Source: Candidatus Omnitrophota bacterium (GTDB lineage: Bacteria; Omnitrophota; Gorgyraeia; Zapsychrales; Fredricksoniimonadaceae). Taken from it: a DNA stretch of 64,000 bases. Below, one piece after another: positions 5,194 to 43,318 of the stretch (its first letter is position 1; each line of letters opens with the position of its first letter). The notes under the pieces were generated by a model. That model did not search any database, was not told the origin of the DNA, and worked only from the letters and a program-made list of their open reading frames with translations. The stretch is from positions 5,455 to 69,454 of the forward strand of contig PEAF01000001.1 of assembly GCA_002753465.1 (NCBI GenBank). Reading direction: 5' to 3'. The translations under genes and the position numbers were made by a program.

Positions 5194-5210
5194 GGATCCT
5201 CAAGTTCAAT

Positions 5211-5242
5211 AAAAAAGCCCCGTCAAGTAACGGGGCTTTTTT
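5211..5242. terminator. Bidirectional rho-independent terminator between echF (+) and ilvN (-)
   Basis: AAAAAA-GCCCCG-tcaagtaa-CGGGGC-TTTTTT. A 6-bp GC stem is flanked by an A-tract and a T-tract, so it can terminate both convergent transcripts. Confidence 0.8.
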
Positions 5243-5262
5243 ATTTTAAGATTACGGTGTAA

Positions 5263-5760
5263 TTAAGTTGTTTCTTTACCCTTGGTCATCAGGATCTTAC
5301 CTGAGCGTACCATTTCAACCAGGCCGTATTTGCTCATGATCGTTTCAAAGGCATTCAGCTCATCTGTTGTGCCTATCTGGGCAATGATCGTAAAGCCATC
5401 GGTCTCGTCAATGATCTTGGCATTGTTCTCCTTGATATATTTGCTCACAACGGCTTTAGCGCTGGAGGTGATCTTCACCTTGAGCAGGGAAAGCTCACGA
5501 TCGACGGAAAGAAGGGTGTTGTGTTCACTGGCATGAATGACATCAATGAGCTTGTTGAGCTGTTTGATGATCGGTTCCAGGATGACAGGATCACCTTTCG
5601 CCGTAACGGTCATACGTGAGAACTTAGGGTTATGTGTGGCAGAAACCACCAGCGAGTCGATGTTAAAAGCACGGCGCGCAAAGGTAAGCGCCACGCGCAC
5701 GAGAACACCGGGTTTATTGGCCACGAGGATGCTGATCGTATGGGTGTCATTTGTTTTCAT
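5263..5760 (-). CDS. ilvN: Acetolactate synthase small (regulatory) subunit
   Basis: MKTNDTHTISILVANKPGVLVRVALTFARRAFNIDSLVV... is the ACT-domain N-terminus typical of IlvN/IlvH. The start was taken at the internal ATG (5760) rather than the 5835 ORF start. Confidence 0.9.
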   Translation of the reverse strand: MKTNDTHTISILVANKPGVLVRVALTFARRAFNIDSLVVSATHNPKFSRMTVTAKGDPVILEPIIKQLNKLIDVIHASEHNTLLSVDRELSLLKVKITSSAKAVVSKYIKENNAKIIDETDGFTIIAQIGTTDELNAFETIMSKYGLVEMVRSGKILMTKGKETT

Positions 5761-5778
5761 AGTGTGCCCTTTTTTCAG

Positions 5779-5877
5779 ATGTTGAACGTGTCCTGCCGCC
5801 TTCGCACCCTGTAATTTTGATGGGTCCCTTCCCATAAAAATTACAGGGGACCCGCTCCGGCGTCACCCGTTCAACAT
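5779..5877. repeat. Structured palindromic intergenic repeat, copy X (homologous to 16844-16938)
   Basis: Outer 10-bp stem ATGTTGAACG/CGTTCAACAT. Inner stem CCCTGTAATTTT/AAAATTACAGGG plus ATGGG/CCCAT closes a TCCCTT loop. The flanks AACGTGTCCTGCCGCCTTCGCACCC and GGGGACCCGCTCCGGCGTCACCCGTT align with copy Y. Confidence 0.7.
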
Positions 5878-5889
5878 TCTTATTTAACG

Positions 5890-7620
5890 TTATGTTGAAC
5901 CTGTTGGTTTTTCCATTTTTGTTTTTGGCGCTTCCATGATGATATGGTAAGCGGATTTTCCGGCCGGGATCATGGGGAAGACATTGCCTTCCTTGATGAC
6001 TTCGGCGTGAATAAGGGCAGGGCCTTTGTGAGCCATCGCCTCAGCCAGCACTTTGCGGCTGTCTTTAACGTTATCAATGTGAAAGCCCTTGATGCCATAG
6101 GCCTCGGCCAGCTTCACAAAGTCAGGATTGCCGACAAGGTCGACACCAGATAAGCGGTTATCGAAGAACAAGGCCTGCCATTGGCGGACCATTCCTAAGT
6201 ACTTGTTATCCACAACAAGGACCTTCACAGGCTGCTTGTTGACAGCGGCTGTCGCCAGCTCACAGAGGGTCATCTGAAAGCCACCGTCGCCAACGATAGC
6301 CACGACCAGTTCGCCGGGGCGTCCGAATTGAGCGCCGATAGCCGCCGGATACCCGTATCCCATGGTCCCAGCGCCGCCGGAAGACAGCCAGTTATGGCAG
6401 TGGTCGACCTTGTAGAACTGCGAAGCCCACATTTGGTGTTGACCGACGTCAGTCGTCACGATGGCTTTGCCTTTAGTGACATGGTAAAGATCATCGATCA
6501 CGCGCTGGGCGGTAAGGCCTTCAGCATCGGAATAGTGCAAAGGGTATTCCTGTTTAACGAAATCAAGTTCCTGCAACCACTCGGCTGTATCAAGTTTATT
6601 CACATGCTTGATCAGTTCTTCAATGACAAGGCGGGCATCACCGACGATCGACAGGTCAGGCCGGACGATCTTATTGATCTCAGCCGGGTCGATATCGATA
6701 TGCACTTTTTTGGCGCCGATGCAGAATTCGTCATTGTTGCCATTAATGCGGTCATCCCAGCGGGAGCCGATGGAAACGATCAGGTCGCATCCGACCAACG
6801 CTTTATTCGCGTAGACGGTCCCGTGCATGCCCAGCATCCCTAATGATAGAGGATGGGTTTCTGGAAAAGCGCCTTTACCTAAAAGCGTCACAGTCACGGG
6901 GCACTGCATTTTTTCGGCCAGTATTTTTACAGCTTTATCAGCATTGGCAATGACAGCACCGTGTCCAACCAAAAGCAGCGGTTTCTTGGAAGCTTTGAAC
7001 AATTTAGCCAACTTGATGATATCGGCCTTATTGCCTTTGCCCGGGATAGTGTAGCCGGGAAGGTCCATTTCCTGGTTCAAAGAACCTGTAAAAGCACCCG
7101 AGGTAATATCCTTAGGAAGGTCAACTAAAACAGGGCCAGGACGTCCGGTTGAAGCAATGTGGAACGCTTCTTTAACGATGCGTGGGATGGAATTGATATC
7201 CTTGACCAGGTAATTGTGTTTGACCACGGGCATGGTGATGCCGGTGATGTCTGATTCCTGGAACGCGTCTTTACCGAGCATGGGTGATATGGTCTGCCCC
7301 GCGAAAACAACGATGGGAATAGAATCCATCATGGCGGTCATGATGCCGGTGACCGTGTTGGTGGCACCAGGACCTGAGGTCACAAGGGCGACACCAACCT
7401 TGCCCGTAGCGCGGGCATAACCGTCAGCCATATGCGTGGCACCCTGTTCATGGCGCACGAGGATGGTTTTGATCTTGGATTCATAAAGTGCGTCGAACAT
7501 CGGGATGGCTGATCCGCCGGGGAGGCCAAATATGTGCTGCACGCCGTGCGCTTCGAGGCATTTGATAAGGGCCTGGGCACCGGTCATAGGTTTTTGCGGT
7601 GATGCAATTTTCTTAGCCAT
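5890..7620 (-). CDS. ilvB: Acetolactate synthase large (catalytic) subunit, ThDP/FAD-dependent
   Basis: 576 aa. [34 protein letters not shown]... and [14 protein letters not shown]...GDGGFQM (ThDP-binding motif) are as in biosynthetic AHAS. Confidence 0.95.
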
Positions 7621-7639
7621 AGTATTTTCCTTATTAATG

Positions 7640-7669
7640 AAAAAGGCGCCGAGACTTCAGCGCCTTTTT
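7640..7669 (-). terminator. Rho-independent terminator-like hairpin after the ferredoxin gene, 19 nt upstream of the ilvB start
   Basis: On the minus strand: AAAAAGGCGC-tgaagtctcg-GCGCCTTTTT, then cattaatAAGGAAAatactATG (ilvB). Confidence 0.7.
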
Positions 7670-7688
7670 CTCAATTCTTTCCGCTGGT

Positions 7689-14162: not shown

Positions 14163-16841
14163 ATGGACTTCAATAAGACAAAGTTGACTCAAACTTTGGC
14201 CGTAGGTGCCAAGAAATACACCATTTACTCACTTCCCAAGCTCGCGAAGCAGGGTTTTGGTGACATATCTAAGCTGCCGTTCTCTATCCGTATCCTTCTG
14301 GAAAGTGCGATCCGTAATTACGATGATTACCAAGTAACGCTGGCTGACGTTAAGACATTGGCGGGCTGGAAACCTAAGAGTGAACTTAAAGAGATCGCTT
14401 TCAAACCAGGGCGTGTTATCCTCCAGGATTTTACCGGAGTGCCGTGCGTGGTGGATCTGGCGGCAATGCGTGAGCAAATGAAGCGCATGGGTGGGGATGT
14501 TAAAAAGATCAATCCCCAGGTCCAGTGCGATCTTGTGATCGATCATTCCCTGCAGGTTGACAGTTATGGTTCATCCAAGGCTTTTGATGAGAATGTGAGC
14601 CTGGAATTTGAGCGTAATAAAGAGCGTTATGAATTCTTAAAGTGGGGGCAGGGCACGTTTGAGAATTTCCGTGTTATCCCGCCGGCCACAGGCATTATTC
14701 ATCAGGTTAATCTCGAGTACCTGGCAGTAGGCGTCCTTTCCAAAGGTAATGTTCTTTATCCCGACTCGTTGGTTGGGACTGACAGCCATACAACTATGAT
14801 CAATGGCATCGGGATCGTCGGTTGGGGCGTGGGTGGTATTGAGGCTGAGTCCGTGATGCTGGGTGAGCCATTATCATTGGTCATGCCTGAGGTCATTGGT
14901 GTACGTTTGACAGGAAAGCTTAATGAAGGCGTTACGGCAACCGATCTGACGCTTACGATCACCGAGATGCTGCGCAAGCGTGGTGTCGTCGATAAGTTTG
15001 TCGAATTCTTTGGTCCTGGCATTAAGAACCTGACGTTACCTGACCGTGCGATGGTATCTAACATGTGCCCGGAATACGGTGCAACTATCGGTATTTTTCC
15101 CATTGATGAGGAAACTATCGCTTTCTACAAGATGACGGGGCGCTCTAAGGAGGCCAGGATCGTTGAGAAGTATTATAAGGCACAGGGCTTGTTCGATCCG
15201 TATAAGAAAATAACGCCGTTATTCTCGGACCTGATCGAACTTGATCTGTCATCGATCGAGCCAAGTCTAGCGGGCCCTAAACGTCCCCAGGACCGTGTGC
15301 GGGTGGTTGATCTGAAAAACAGCTTTCTGCAGACGTTGACGGCTCAGGTCGGGCATAAAGGTTTTGGATTGGCTCAAGCTGATGTTGAGAAGAAGCAGTC
15401 GGTAGCTGATTCCAATGATGTTATTTCTCACGGCAGTGTTGTATTGGCGGCTATCACCAGTTGTACCAATACATCTAATCCGTCTGTGTTGATCGGGGCG
15501 GGTCTTTTAGCCAAGAAGTCTGTGGCTAAAGGCTTGAAGATGAAGTCTTTTGTAAAGACGTCTTTTACCCCGGGATCGCAGGTCGTCGATGAATATTTGA
15601 AGAAGGCCGGTTTGATGAAAAGCCTTGAAGCGCTGGGTTTTCATAATGTCGGCTATGGGTGTGCAACGTGCATTGGGAACAGCGGTCCCTTGCCTGAAGC
15701 CGTGGCCTCGGCCATTGAAAAGGGTGGACTCATCGCCGCAAGTGTTACGTCGGGTAACCGTAACTTTGAGGGGCGTATCAATCCGCATGTGAAGGCCAAT
15801 TATCTGGCATCGCCGATGCTTGTGGTGGCGTATGCCCTGGCAGGCACGGTCAACGTTGACCTGTCTCATGATCCTCTTGGTTTTGATGCCAAGGGCCAGC
15901 CTGTTTATTTGAAAGACATATGGCCGACGCAGGGAGAGATCAGTAAGGCTGTTAAGAAGTTCGTTACGGCAAGGATATTCAGCGGTAAGTACAAGCACGC
16001 GGTAAAAGGCAGTAAACATTGGAAAGCCGTTAAAGAGCTCAAGGGTGAGCTTTATAAGTGGGATGACAAAAGCACTTATATCCAACATCCTCCTTATTTT
16101 GAAAAGATGGGAGGAGGGTTAAAGGCCATTGAAGATATCAAAAGTGCCCGTGCACTTATTATGGTCGGGGATTCGATCACGACAGATCATATTTCACCGG
16201 CCGGCAATATTTCGCTCAAGAGTCCGGCAGGCCAGTACTTAGTGAATCAGGGTGTTGAACAAAAAGATTTTAACAGTTATGGTGCACGGCGCGGTAATGA
16301 TCGTGTCATGGTTCGCGGTACCTTTGCCAATATCCGTTTACGCAATCTGCTCGCACCCGGGACCGAGGGTTCATGGACCACGCACTTCCCGTCGGGTGAG
16401 AAGATGAGCATTTATGCGGCTTCGTACAGATATTTGGAATCAGGCATCGCCCTTATCGGCTTAGCGGGTAAGGAATACGGCACTGGTTCCAGCCGTGATT
16501 GGGCGGCTAAGGGGCCGGCTCTTTTAGGCATACGCGCTGTGATCGCCGAAAGTTTTGAGCGTATCCATCGTTCCAACCTGGCGGGGATGGGCATTATGCC
16601 GTTGCAGTTTAAGCCGGGGGAGAATGCGATAAGCCTTGGCTTGAAAGGTGATGAGGTTTTTGATATCCTAGGGCTTACTGAATCGCTTAAACCGCGTCAG
16701 GATATCGTTGTCAGAGCAATGTCTTCAGACGGGAAGAATATAGAATTCAAGGCGATCGTCAGGCTGGATACGCCGGTAGAGATCGATTATTACCGTAATG
16801 GCGGGATCCTTCAGACCGTGTTGAGGAAGTTAGCAATATGA
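14163..16841 (+). CDS. acnA: Aconitate hydratase A
   Basis: 892 aa. [11 protein letters not shown]..., [32 protein letters not shown] and GNRNFEGR are the aconitase/IRP family signatures. Confidence 0.95.
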
Positions 16842-16843
16842 TT

Positions 16844-16938
16844 CATCAACGGGTCCTGCCGCCTCCGGCATCCCATTGCTATTTGGGACCCTACCCAAAT
16901 AGCAATAGGAACCCTGCCTGCGGCGTCTCCCGTTGATG
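16844..16938. repeat. Structured palindromic intergenic repeat, copy Y (homologous to 5779-5877)
   Basis: Outer stem CATCAACGGG/CCCGTTGATG. Inner 13-bp stem ATTGCTATTTGGG/CCCAAATAGCAAT closes an ACCCTA loop. The flanks AACGGGTCCTGCCGCCTCCGGCATCCC and GGAACCCTGCCTGCGGCGTCTCCCGTT align with copy X. Confidence 0.7.
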
Positions 16939-16969
16939 CATTTAATCACAATAATCAAGAGGGAGTTTT

Positions 16970-18385
16970 ATGGGTAAGACAATGTATCAAAAGATCTGGG
17001 ATGCGCACTTGGTCCATGAGGACAAAGCGACGGCCTCTCTTATTTATGTTGATCGTCAGTTAGTACATGAAGTGACGAGCCCCCAGGCATTTGAAGGTCT
17101 TCGTATTTCAGGGCGCAAGATCCGCTGCACGCAAAAGACGTTCGCGACCATGGACCATAACGTTCCTACAAAAAGTAAGGACCTGTCCTTAGCCAGCACG
17201 ACCTCACGCACACAGATGGATCAGTTGAAAAAAAATTGTGATGAGTTCGGCGTCAGGTGTTTTGATCTTAATGACGAGGATCACGGTGTTGTGCATATTA
17301 TCGGGCCAGAGCTTGGTATCACACAGCCGGGAATGGTGATCGTTTGCGGTGATTCCCATACGGCGACCCATGGCGCTTTCGGCGCTTTGGCATTCGGTAT
17401 CGGTACATCTGAGGTCGAACATGTTATGGCGACGCAGACGCTGCAGCAGAAAACATCCAGGACCATGCTTATTAATATCAATGGTGTACTGGGTGAGGGT
17501 GTGACGCCCAAGGATGTTGTTCTTTATATTATTGGTTTGATCGGTACGGCCGGAGCAACAGGATATGTGATTGAATATGCCGGTGATGTCATTACAGCCA
17601 TGTCCATGGAAGGACGCATGACGGTCTGTAATATGTCCATTGAGGCCGGAGCACGTGGCGGTATGATTGCGCCAGATGAGAAGACATTCACTTATCTTCA
17701 AGGACGGGACTATGCGCCCAAGGGCAGTGATTGGGTTAAAGCCGTGACCTACTGGAAGACATTGACAAGTGATAAGGATGCTGTTTTTGATAAAGTTATC
17801 CATATTAAAGCTGAAGATATCCGTCCGCAGGTTACCTGGGGCACAAGTCCGGGACAGGTGACGTCAGTCGATAATGTTGTTCCGGATCCTGAATCTTTTA
17901 AAGATCCAACGGAAAAGATCGCGGCTGCGAATGCTTTGCGTTATATGGACCTTAAACCCGGCATGAAGATCACGGATATTAAGATCGATGTCGTTTTCAT
18001 CGGTTCGTGCACTAATGGCCGTATTGAAGACCTGCGCGCGGCCTCAGAGGTGATCAAAGGGCGTAAAGTGGCTGCTGGCGTTCAGGCGCTGATCGTCCCG
18101 GGTTCAGGCAGAGTAAAGCGTCAGGCTGAACGTGAAGGTTTGGATAAGATCTTTATGGCGGCCGGCTGTGAATGGCGTCACGCGGGCTGTTCGATGTGCT
18201 TGGCGATGAATGACGATCAATTGACGCCGGGCCAGCGTTGTGCCGCGACATCTAATCGTAATTTTGAAGGCCGTCAGGGCCCTGGCGGGCGTACACATCT
18301 TGTCAGTCCTGAAATGGCTGCCGCGGCGGCTGTTACGGGTCAGATCACGGACATCAGAGAATTCTTGCTCGGGAAGAAAGGTTGA
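16970..18385 (+). CDS. leuC: 3-isopropylmalate dehydratase large subunit
   Basis: 471 aa. [54 protein letters not shown] and [10 protein letters not shown]. Confidence 0.95.
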
Positions 18386-42705: not shown

Positions 42706-43293
42706 ATGACAATGGATCCTGTAAATAAAAAAATACTTTTGCATGTTTGCTGCGCCCCCTGTTCAGGCGGCATCATAGAAACTCTTTTGAATGAGGGCTG
42801 CCACCCGACTTTATTCTTTTATAACCCGAACATTCATCCGGTCCAGGAATATTTGCGTCGCAAGGAAGAGATCATCTTGTTTGCCGGTAAAGCCGGTTTT
42901 GATTGCGTGGACGTAGATCATGATCCTGATCAGTGGTTTTTGAGGGTGTCGGGATTGGAGTCAGAGCCAGAGCGCGGACGCCGTTGTCAGGCCTGTTTTG
43001 ATATGCGCCTTGAGCGGGCGGCACTTTACGCGTATGAGCATGCTTTTGACGTCCTGGCCACTACCAATGGCATATCACGCTGGAAAGATATGGATCAGGT
43101 CAATTCCGCAGGGATAAAAGCCGTACGCCTCTACCCTTCAGTTCGATTTTGGGACAGAAATTGGCGGAAGGTTGACGGTATAAAGCGTATGCTGGACGTT
43201 TTAAGGCGTGAGAACTTCTATCAGCAGGATTATTGCGGGTGTTTATTTTCTTTTGAAGCGGCAAAAAGGCGTAAAAACACTAAAACCCTGTAA
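42706..43293 (+). CDS. queH: Epoxyqueuosine reductase QueH (DUF208)
   Basis: LLHVCCAPCSGG...FFYNPNIHP..EY..R... and a C-terminal ..QDYCGC are the QueH/DUF208 Cys pattern. Confidence 0.85.
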   Translation: MTMDPVNKKILLHVCCAPCSGGIIETLLNEGCHPTLFFYNPNIHPVQEYLRRKEEIILFAGKAGFDCVDVDHDPDQWFLRVSGLESEPERGRRCQACFDMRLERAALYAYEHAFDVLATTNGISRWKDMDQVNSAGIKAVRLYPSVRFWDRNWRKVDGIKRMLDVLRRENFYQQDYCGCLFSFEAAKRRKNTKTL

Positions 43294-43318
43294 TGCATAA
43301 TGCTTTACAGGGTTTTTT
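43282..43318. terminator. Bidirectional terminator after queH
   Basis: AAAACCCTGTAA-tgcataatgct-TTACAGGGTTTT. The A/T tracts on either side allow termination from both directions. Confidence 0.75.

Follow-up and report, generated by a model that had tools for sequence, protein, structure and literature searches.

The stretch of DNA analysed here (the window, 64 kb in length) contains two copies, X and Y, of a hairpin-shaped element, X lying between ilvB and ilvN and Y between the aconitase gene acnA and leuC (Table 1). The identities of the four genes were taken from syntenic relatives annotated with Pfam. The ilvB-ilvN spacer extends from position 5761 to 5889 and measures 129 nt, 99 nt of which are occupied by X. 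The outer stem of X is formed by ATGTTGAACG (5779-5788) and CGTTCAACAT (5868-5877). When checked against the sequence, the coordinates and sequence of X, the 129-nt spacer and the TCCCTT loop were all found as described in the initial annotation, and X is indeed antisense, and Y sense, to its own flanking genes. Read antisense to the family orientation, X is a stem-loop of about -47 kcal/mol that lies downstream of the ilvB stop by 12 nt and upstream of the ilvN start by 18 nt. The last codons of ilvB contain a 9-nt direct repeat, ATGTTGAAC, of the beginning of X; this repeat is isolated and its relation to insertion is unexplained.

Table 1. Coordinates of the genes and of the parts of copies X and Y in the window.
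Feature	Position	Strand	Remarks
ilvN	5263-5760	-	Identity via Pfam-annotated syntenic relatives
X, element copy	5779-5877	+	Family '+' orientation on the plus strand of the window; antisense to ilvB and ilvN
X closing stem P1, 5' arm ATGTTGAACGTG	5779-5790	+	Pairs with 5866-5877; P1 covaries family-wide
X 5' core GTCCTGCCGCC	5790-5800	+	Exact pattern match; invariant across 90 relatives
X variable apical hairpin P3	5807-5848	+	Arms 5807-5824 and 5831-5848; loop TCCCTT at 5825-5830
X 3' core GGCGTCACCCG	5859-5869	+	Pattern match; invariant columns in alignment A2
X closing stem P1, 3' arm CCCGTTCAACAT	5866-5877	+	Fold and inverted-repeat scan
ilvB ORF	5890-7620	-	Identity via Pfam-annotated syntenic relatives
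Direct repeat ATGTTGAAC	5892-5900	+	Exact copy of X 5' arm 5779-5787, in the last codons of ilvB
acnA (aconitase)	14163-16841	+	Stop at 16841; identity via Pfam-annotated syntenic relatives
Y, element copy	16844-16938	+	Between acnA and leuC, sense to both
Y closing stem P1, 5' arm CATCAACGGG	16844-16853	+	Pairs with 16929-16938
Y 5' core GTCCTGCCGCC	16853-16863	+	Pattern match
Y variable apical hairpin P3	16871-16910	+	Arms 16871-16887 and 16894-16910; loop ACCCTA; inverted repeat
Y 3' core GGCGTCTCCCG	16922-16932	+	Pattern match
Y closing stem P1, 3' arm CCCGTTGATG	16929-16938	+	Fold and inverted-repeat scan
leuC	16970-18385	+	Start at 16970; identity via Pfam-annotated syntenic relatives

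On either strand, X and Y form long irregular hairpins (minimum free energies between -45 and -59 kcal/mol, z-scores between -6.3 and -10.1), and none of 200 shuffled sequences folded as well; the structure is far beyond chance. The fold of X has -45.5 kcal/mol (z -7.4) and that of Y -54.7 kcal/mol (z -10.1). The arms of the apical hairpin P3 of X are 94% complementary in an inverted-repeat scan, and the sequence of P3 differs from that of Y and of all relatives while the pairing is the same. This agrees with the initial annotation, in which the inner stems of the two copies were held to be unrelated in sequence yet both paired, and the left and right cores to be common to both. Within the window the exact GTCCTGCCGCCT and CGGCGTC.CCCGTT are present at X and Y only. 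A first covariance model (R1) scored X at 56.2 bits and Y at 61.6 bits. An independent model (R2), trained on 96 elements from other organisms and on no window sequence, recovered Y at 57.6 bits (E=3e-10) and X at 49.1 bits (E=1.9e-8), with no other match in the 64 kb. The status of Y as a second copy of the X design is thereby supported without use of the window itself. Pattern searches, the inverted-repeat scan and a full unfiltered covariance model scan of the 64 kb revealed no third copy.

IlvN assigns the window to a Candidatus Omnitrophota bacterium; a look-up of window proteins by exact sequence gave no record. The junctions at which X and Y lie are very short in a syntenic relative (L140/L141, 84% IlvN identity), where the ilvB-ilvN junction measures 18 nt and the acnA-leuC junction 14 nt, both without an element. 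Since relatives have junctions of only 14-18 nt, X and Y are insertions, and the description of X as splitting ilvB from ilvN applies literally, as an insertion event. In another relative (L138/L139, 88% identity) the ilvB-ilvN site holds a shortened remnant in the same orientation as X, which retains the outer arms and the 5' core TGGGTCCTGCCGCC; the insertion of X therefore predates the split and has partly decayed there. The acnA-leuC site of L138 carries a perfect 19-bp palindrome, the outermost CATC/GATG of which match the arms of Y; this is unexplained. Copies of the element thus arise by insertion into very short junctions of co-transcribed genes.

The exact composite pattern GTCCTGCCGCCT N40-70 GGCGTC.CCCGTT was searched against one genome per prokaryotic species and gave 15 loci, 13 of which are clearly homologous, from 8 MAGs with 7 taxonomic labels. 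These 13 copies belong to Planctomycetia (2), to a groundwater deltaproteobacterium (5, within one MAG) and otherwise to Saccharibacteria, two Omnitrophota, Dormibacteraeota, Patescibacteria and Myxococcales. A slightly looser pattern yielded at least 120 loci on metagenome contigs. About 99 of the matches among those listed follow a CGG and are bounded by pairing flanks (P1), the rest being coincidences in GC-rich coding sequence. On viral contigs the looser pattern gave two chance matches only, and no BLAST match to the element was obtained in plasmid and phage collections. Several contigs carry two copies 0.1-8 kb apart in the same or opposite orientation, and on one contig at least three copies form a tandem array with 30-nt separation. 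At least about 100 relatives of X and Y were recovered by the pattern scans; the initial annotation had predicted further copies with retained pairing, and in the roughly 100 found the stems covary. Judged from these sequence matches, the family is large and phylogenetically very widespread.

The element is an imperfect palindrome of about 70-100 bp (65-95 nt from CGGG to CCCG) and consists of three parts, namely a closing stem that differs from locus to locus, a core that is invariant and asymmetric, and an apical hairpin that varies in sequence but is paired in every copy. In alignment A2 the closing stem P1 is made of 3-8 locus-specific nucleotides plus CGGG, paired with CCCG and the complementary nucleotides. 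The core, 5'-GGG[UCC]UGYC-3' opposite 5'-GYCACCC-3', is common across phyla and forms three G-C pairs, a 3-nt UCC bulge, a U-A pair, a G-C pair, a pyrimidine-pyrimidine mismatch and a C-G pair. In X the segment GTCCTGCCGCC comprises the UCC bulge, U-A, G-C, the C.U mismatch and the start of P2. In the alignment the bulge is followed inward by U-A, G-C, the C.U mismatch, CGCC/GGCG and then the variable part of P2, with a short 3' bulge, often NCCCC; P3 is lineage-specific and only its pairing is required. Both window copies carry the core together with P1, P2 and P3 pairing. They depart from the family at single positions: T5789 of X, where the family has G, causes one mismatch in the closing stem, and an A-to-T change at 16929 of Y (A108 to U) is also found in 6 of 90 relatives. 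The GC content of the element is 0.5-0.7 versus 0.39-0.5 in the flanks. The AACG...CGTT flanks, listed as conserved parts in the initial annotation, are present in X and Y but not family-wide, AAC..GTT being found in 17 of 93 relatives, and the general flank feature is CGG(G)...(C)CCG only. Likewise, the apex GGG.CCCT.CCC is shared by X and Y but is not a family trait, since it recurs only in copies of the Omnitrophota type (L006).

The pairing is supported by compensatory change throughout. One pair of P1 is G-C in 42 and A-U in 39 sequences, and the next pair occurs in four Watson-Crick types. The covariation score, calculated on a structure specified by the authors, is 0.283 versus 0.109 in column-shuffled alignments (0.283 was reached in none of 500); with slid partners it does not exceed 0.125. 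An alternative register of P2 proposed by RNAalifold (UGCC/GGCG) scores worse than CGCC+N/N+GGCG and was rejected, the register being fixed by compensatory changes. Invariance of the core among pattern-selected copies is forced by the search pattern, so copies found only by the covariance model were examined. In these, GGGUCCUG and G(Y)CACCC are fixed in nearly all, and the changes in P2 are compensated, C22-G102 to A-U and U-A, G20-C104 to A-U, and C21-G103 to A-U or G-C. The closing pair C9-G112 has changed once to G-C, and the mismatch C18.U106 has become U18.C106 in three contigs. The outer arms differ even among near-identical copies in one genome (gacg/cgtc, agtg/cact, gtg/cac, uugg/cuag).

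The layout, in which a paired box on the outside is followed by a spacer that is unpaired or bulged, then by another paired box and finally by a variable stem, agrees with that of a folded single-strand recombination site, either an orphan integron attC or a comparable site of a tyrosine recombinase. As in attC, structure rather than sequence is conserved, so that recognition would be by the folded structure; the paired boxes are separated by an unpaired region and bulged bases, the variable terminal stem-loop is of similar size, AAC...GTT is present at the outer box of X and Y, and the tandem array of at least three copies 30 nt apart is suggestive. However, the R''(RYYYAAC)/R'(GTTRRRY) boxes are unmet, AAC..GTT being in X and Y a subfamily trait only (17 of 93 members). 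The internal words GGGUCCUG and GYCACCC are strongly conserved and foreign to attC, single copies are scattered among or within housekeeping genes instead of forming cassette arrays, and no integrase clusters with them. Such a site is considered highly improbable.

The element occupies very short gaps between genes. Gene contexts were derived from crude ORF calls, and only contigs with unambiguous ORFs were counted; among the clean contexts, the element runs along with both flanking genes in 10 and against both in 14, and the flanking genes converge on it in 10 and diverge from it in 2. The flanking pairs, named from ORF translations and not annotated by a tool, are unrelated (carA|carB, nuoE|nuoF, xseA|xseB, murA|prmC, hisC|pheA, frr|glyS). 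All-against-all clustering of 1,213 neighbouring ORFs revealed no gene family linked to more than 4 of about 95 loci, which argues against a linked transposase and against a regulated gene family. In low-GC genomes many copies are located inside real genes and are read through in frame. Pfam identified GatB, CysRS, TopA, a pseudouridine synthase and an AMP-binding enzyme as intragenic hosts; in MnmA and KsgA, net loop insertions of about 21-26 residues are evident when the proteins are aligned to solved structures, and TyrRS and a methyltransferase are further hosts. The reading frame relative to the element is identical in 10 of 10 intragenic cases, comprising both orientations; one orientation encodes the peptide (T/A)GPAA...ASP(V/A) and the opposite one (T/A)GDA...AAGP(V/A). 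Of 93 copies, 47 have a length divisible by 3, versus 22 and 24 for the other two residues. Some copies are thus inserted in frame in loops of housekeeping proteins, in either orientation. The preference of the initial annotation for an orientation-independent role over a strand-specific riboregulator is borne out, both orientations being found relative to host genes and also inside coding sequences.

Copies in essential genes and at operon junctions could be phenotypically silent if the hairpin were excised from the RNA as a 'mini-intron' by a structure-specific endonuclease and a ligase, with P1 bringing the flanks together. P1 does pair the two flanks in every case, and the roughly symmetric rod could be recognized without regard to orientation. 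The verified intragenic copies, however, all keep the frame open, with the same benign frame in 10 of 10, and lengths divisible by 3 are enriched. Moreover, as judged from the structure, the core has a single 3-nt bulge and no bulge-helix-bulge geometry. No hairpin mini-intron system is known from bacteria, and this explanation is barely credible.

The architecture and the covariation also resemble those of an RNA motif, such as a new self-cleaving ribozyme, a riboswitch or a small RNA acting on one strand. The isosteric exchange of C.U for U.C, observed three times at one position, and a slight excess of G.U pairs on the '+' strand (58 vs 39 on the '-' strand) point in that direction, but the G.U excess lacks statistical significance, and in 69 of 90 copies the '-' strand has the higher predicted stability. 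The element occurs in both orientations relative to host transcription, also within ORFs, there is no conserved downstream gene family, and the flanking gaps of 0-30 nt are often too small for a promoter; no promoter signals attributable to X or Y were found. The comparison with Rfam recommended in the initial annotation was run, and it points to no known RNA family: the window gave no match to Rfam 15 at gathering thresholds, and at E<=10 the window and related loci gave only generic hairpin matches to miRNA models, none of them relevant. The nucleotides that define the K-turn, bulge-helix-bulge, HDV-like, twister and hairpin-ribozyme motifs and the Y-RNA Ro-site are absent, a judgement made from the sequence alone. 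A strand-specific structured RNA is accordingly regarded as very unlikely. A mobile DNA element is preferred because orientation is free, ORFs are read through, copies are polymorphic for presence and absence, remnants exist, the element is multicopy and no gene is associated with it.

The dynamics of such an element can be followed in Saccharibacteria. TyrRS proteins that are 76-98% identical differ in one variable loop, which is either empty (411 aa), filled with a '-' element or with a '+' element at the same codon, reduced by a 4-residue deletion footprint, or occupied by other inserts. Apart from 2 differences in about 75 nt, counted by eye, the '+' copy (L145) is the reverse complement of the '-' copy (L143), whereas the TyrRS proteins that hold them are only 82% identical. 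The filled TyrRS allele closest to an empty one differs from it by a tract of about 200 nt at 60-85% identity within genes that are 95-100% identical, which implies that this copy arrived by homologous recombination of a diverged allele. Copies can thus pass between strains by homologous recombination of flanking host DNA. In the adjoining methyltransferase gene the element is present in all four lineages. Two orthologous copies there differ at 14 positions, of which 10 represent five fully compensated pair changes and none is disruptive; these changes point to continuing constraint on the hairpin and not simple decay of junk, but they could instead stem from repeated re-insertion at a hotspot. 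The third lineage examined has, in this gene, a canonical copy beside the stump of an older one. Other length differences among the four syntenic loci were traced to start sites or low-complexity sequence and do not represent elements.

Compensatory changes that preserve pairing even in orthologous copies within coding sequence would also be expected of a domesticated module that benefits the host, for example as an mRNA stabiliser, a processing or decoupling signal, or a site for nucleoid or topology proteins, as proposed for REP/BIME. The placement in tight co-directional or convergent junctions with depletion between divergent genes, the very high predicted stability of the copies (mean about -51 kcal/mol) and a core conserved across phyla while the remainder diverges are compatible with this explanation. 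It is nevertheless held to be unlikely: the same junctions vary in presence and absence between close relatives, decayed remnants exist, an mRNA signal has no obvious use in the in-frame copies within unrelated enzymes, and the two orientations that occur present different RNA cores. The U-tract of a terminator is also lacking. An intrinsic terminator was rejected for X and Y, there being no U-tract or T-run beyond either arm and no terminator-like site matching the full hairpin. As to the local effect, X and Y would likely act as passive strong stem-loops in the ilvBN and acnA-leuCD transcripts; it is conjectured that they may modulate mRNA stability or coupling, without having been selected as riboregulators.

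X and Y are therefore probably copies of a small, non-autonomous, hairpin-shaped mobile DNA element that belongs to a large and widespread family. On the best reading, which rests on analogy, this element behaves like REPs, MITEs and the Rickettsia palindromic elements. The analysis of 0.83 Mb of loci, not whole genomes, revealed neither a transposase, a recombinase or an autonomous parent near the copies nor distant pairs of 5' and 3' cores. A search for half-sites standing alone and for long autonomous versions yielded nothing but remnants and nested fragments. No target-site duplication is visible, the flanks being inverted complements and not direct repeats, and a systematic search for nearby duplicates of the arm sequences in other copies, as expected of a duplicated or copied target, gave no enrichment.

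Mobile GC-rich palindromic clusters are known from fungal and algal mitochondria, where GC-rich hairpins have invaded intergenic and coding sequence of AT-richer genomes without a known transposase. The X/Y family likewise consists of GC-rich hairpins in intergenic and coding positions for which no transposase is known, whereas the mitochondrial clusters are organellar and not known to be related to it in sequence; the comparison is one of analogy. Like the MITEs (Correia, ERIC, RUP), the elements are small and non-coding, form long hairpins, are found in either orientation and share transcripts with their neighbours, and the imperfect inverted ends CGGGTCCTGCCGCC and CGGGTGACGCC, the latter being the reverse complement of the 3' core, could pass as terminal inverted repeats. 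Unlike MITEs, they have no direct target-site duplication and no related autonomous IS in the loci searched, their flanks are inverted complements that differ at every locus, and their core is conserved across phyla.

REPs measure 20-40 bp and have an unpaired GTAG or CGTC tag, stems of 8-9 bp and loops of 4-5 nt (PMC3733652). The X/Y family shares with REP, BIME and REPIN repeats that the palindromes lie mainly between unidirectional or convergent genes, are sometimes intragenic, are multicopy and give stable hairpins in the transcript, and with REPINs in particular the two imperfectly inverted ends with a variable middle. However, the X/Y element is 65-95 nt long, has another core and lacks a short stem with a GTAG or CGTC tag at its base; a CGTC-tagged REP family was excluded, as the published GTAG- and CGTC-tagged REPs are much smaller and differently built. 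REP families are, moreover, lineage-specific, whereas the X/Y family is cross-phylum. No RAYT gene was seen in the loci, which were at most 21 kb long and not whole genomes. Of the roles offered in the initial annotation (a REP/BIME-like repeat, a terminator, a stabiliser or a recombinase target), a palindromic repeat of the REP/BIME kind is thus retained, but the element is not REP/BIME proper and lacks the U-tract of a terminator.

The Rickettsia palindromic elements (RPE; Ogata et al. 2000, 2002, cited after PMC10969869) are palindromic repeats of about 100-150 bp without a transposase of their own, which occur between genes as well as in frame within unrelated housekeeping genes, where they encode a short peptide in tolerated loops. 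The X/Y family resembles them in behaviour only, being also palindromic, transposase-free, intergenic and in frame in unrelated protein genes. RPEs are limited to Rickettsia and relatives, whereas the X/Y family has at least 7 taxonomic labels and an invariant core, uses both orientations at the same codon and has hosts that are not Rickettsiales. Small palindromic mobile repeats, including those that invade proteins, are a kind already known. The literature searched contained no description of the X/Y family, and this family, with its invariant core and cross-phylum breadth, appears to be undescribed in the resources searched.

The complementary, locus-specific outer arms fit no standard transposition mechanism, which counts against reading X and Y as mobile elements. 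The combination of a cross-phylum core with lineage-specific variable parts is likewise not usual among MITEs or REPs. That the core has been retained in different phyla speaks for purifying selection exerted by a conserved partner and not for recent transfer. In the mechanism inferred for a mobile element, action would be at the DNA level, and the folded core would be recognised either by a structure-specific enzyme that acts in trans from a gene at another place, or by a conserved host factor, neither of which has been demonstrated. The host would transcribe and, where needed, translate through the element. The arms would be generated or selected at insertion, again an inference without proof, and possible routes may include insertion at dyads or copies already present at the site, as well as intrastrand templated repair. 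A more specific proposal is that the family represents a new class of mobile palindromes without a transposase of their own, in which the core docks a conserved enzyme of the host whose substrates are extruded hairpins or single-stranded DNA, while insertion and intrastrand templated repair create the arms and keep the stems paired; this proposal is doubtful. If true, such an element could colonise operon junctions and the loops of essential proteins in any orientation, from Saccharibacteria to Planctomycetes.

One structural signature of 8+7 nt is found in very distant phyla, including the Saccharibacteria and Patescibacteria with their reduced genomes, and this implies a common, still unidentified recognition partner, for which the covariance model provides a handle by phylogenetic profiling. 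The family also supplies a natural series of insertions, empty sites, inversions and footprints in essential genes such as that for TyrRS, and it illustrates that strong covariation by itself is not indicative of a functional RNA. Annotators should expect such elements to lengthen intergenic spacers, as between ilvB and ilvN, and to add loops of 24-31 residues to enzymes.

The perfect inverted repeat at the acnA-leuC junction of L138, a syntenic Omnitrophota relative of the window, is located at the exact junction of the two genes, overlaps the acnA stop and is orthologous to about 16842-16969 of the window, where copy Y of the element lies (16844-16938). An outer CATC/GATG is common to this repeat and the arms of Y. 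The L138 palindrome is possibly a dyad that served as a target, the footprint of an excision, or a further palindromic insert. At copy X, in the ilvB-ilvN spacer, the 5' arm is present as one unit of a 9-nt direct repeat, the second unit of which is found 14 nt past the opposite end of X, within the final ilvB codons; relatives carry GTTCAACCT at the ilvB position of this second unit. A comparable arm repeat was looked for around other element copies, and none was found. X and Y share one orientation on the window; two copies are too few for inference of a strand bias. All 4-kb bins of the window (1-64000) show positive GC skew, so the window is probably on one replichore, with the plus strand leading.

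Features at and around element copies and related loci.
Feature	Location	Detail
Direct repeat, 9-mer ATGTTGAAC	window 5779-5787 and 5892-5900	First unit is the 5' arm of X
Perfect inverted repeat, 19-bp arms, 1-nt centre	L138:3473-3511	CATCTCCACCTCGTAGGTG-C-CACCTACGAGGTGGAGATG
Tandem array, at least 3 identical 72-nt elements, nearly identical 30-nt spacers	L045:2716-2935	
Truncated 5' cores adjoining full copies, inverted orientation; head-to-head 5' core pair	L019:512-545 and L085:5412-5480	Pair: GGTCCTGTCG-GCA-CGGCAGGACC
Conserved GC-rich region, about 450 nt	L036:3100-3600; also L108, L109, L119	Four metagenome contigs
Terminator-like hairpins, flanking A- and T-runs	window 5208-5245, 7639-7670, 43282-43316	After ilvN, upstream of ilvB, 43.3 kb
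Cobalamin riboswitch, 71 bits	L006:7124-7328	Omnitrophota MAG
GC-rich insert of about 100 nt, folding as a hairpin (-50 kcal/mol)	L146:600-760	TyrRS P0135, another Saccharibacteria lineage

The three terminator-like hairpins of the window are ordinary and unrelated to the element family. The GC-rich region of the four metagenome contigs contains both core words (GTCCTGCCGCC ... GGGCGTCACCCG); P1 pairing, that of the closing stem, is absent, the covariance model scores are weak (24-28 bits) and no Rfam match was obtained for the region, which may have been hit by chance or be distantly related. The cobalamin riboswitch lies about 200 nt upstream of an element copy, probably by coincidence.

The array at L045 looks like a local tandem duplication and not a CRISPR- or cassette-like array. 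The core arrangements at L019 and L085 suggest that copies already in place received nested or repeated insertions. The insert in L146 occupies the same TyrRS loop as the family elements in Saccharibacteria, is a different one that lacks the family core, and is bordered on either side by TCTCGA. The TyrRS loop appears to be a hotspot shared by hairpin elements of more than one type.
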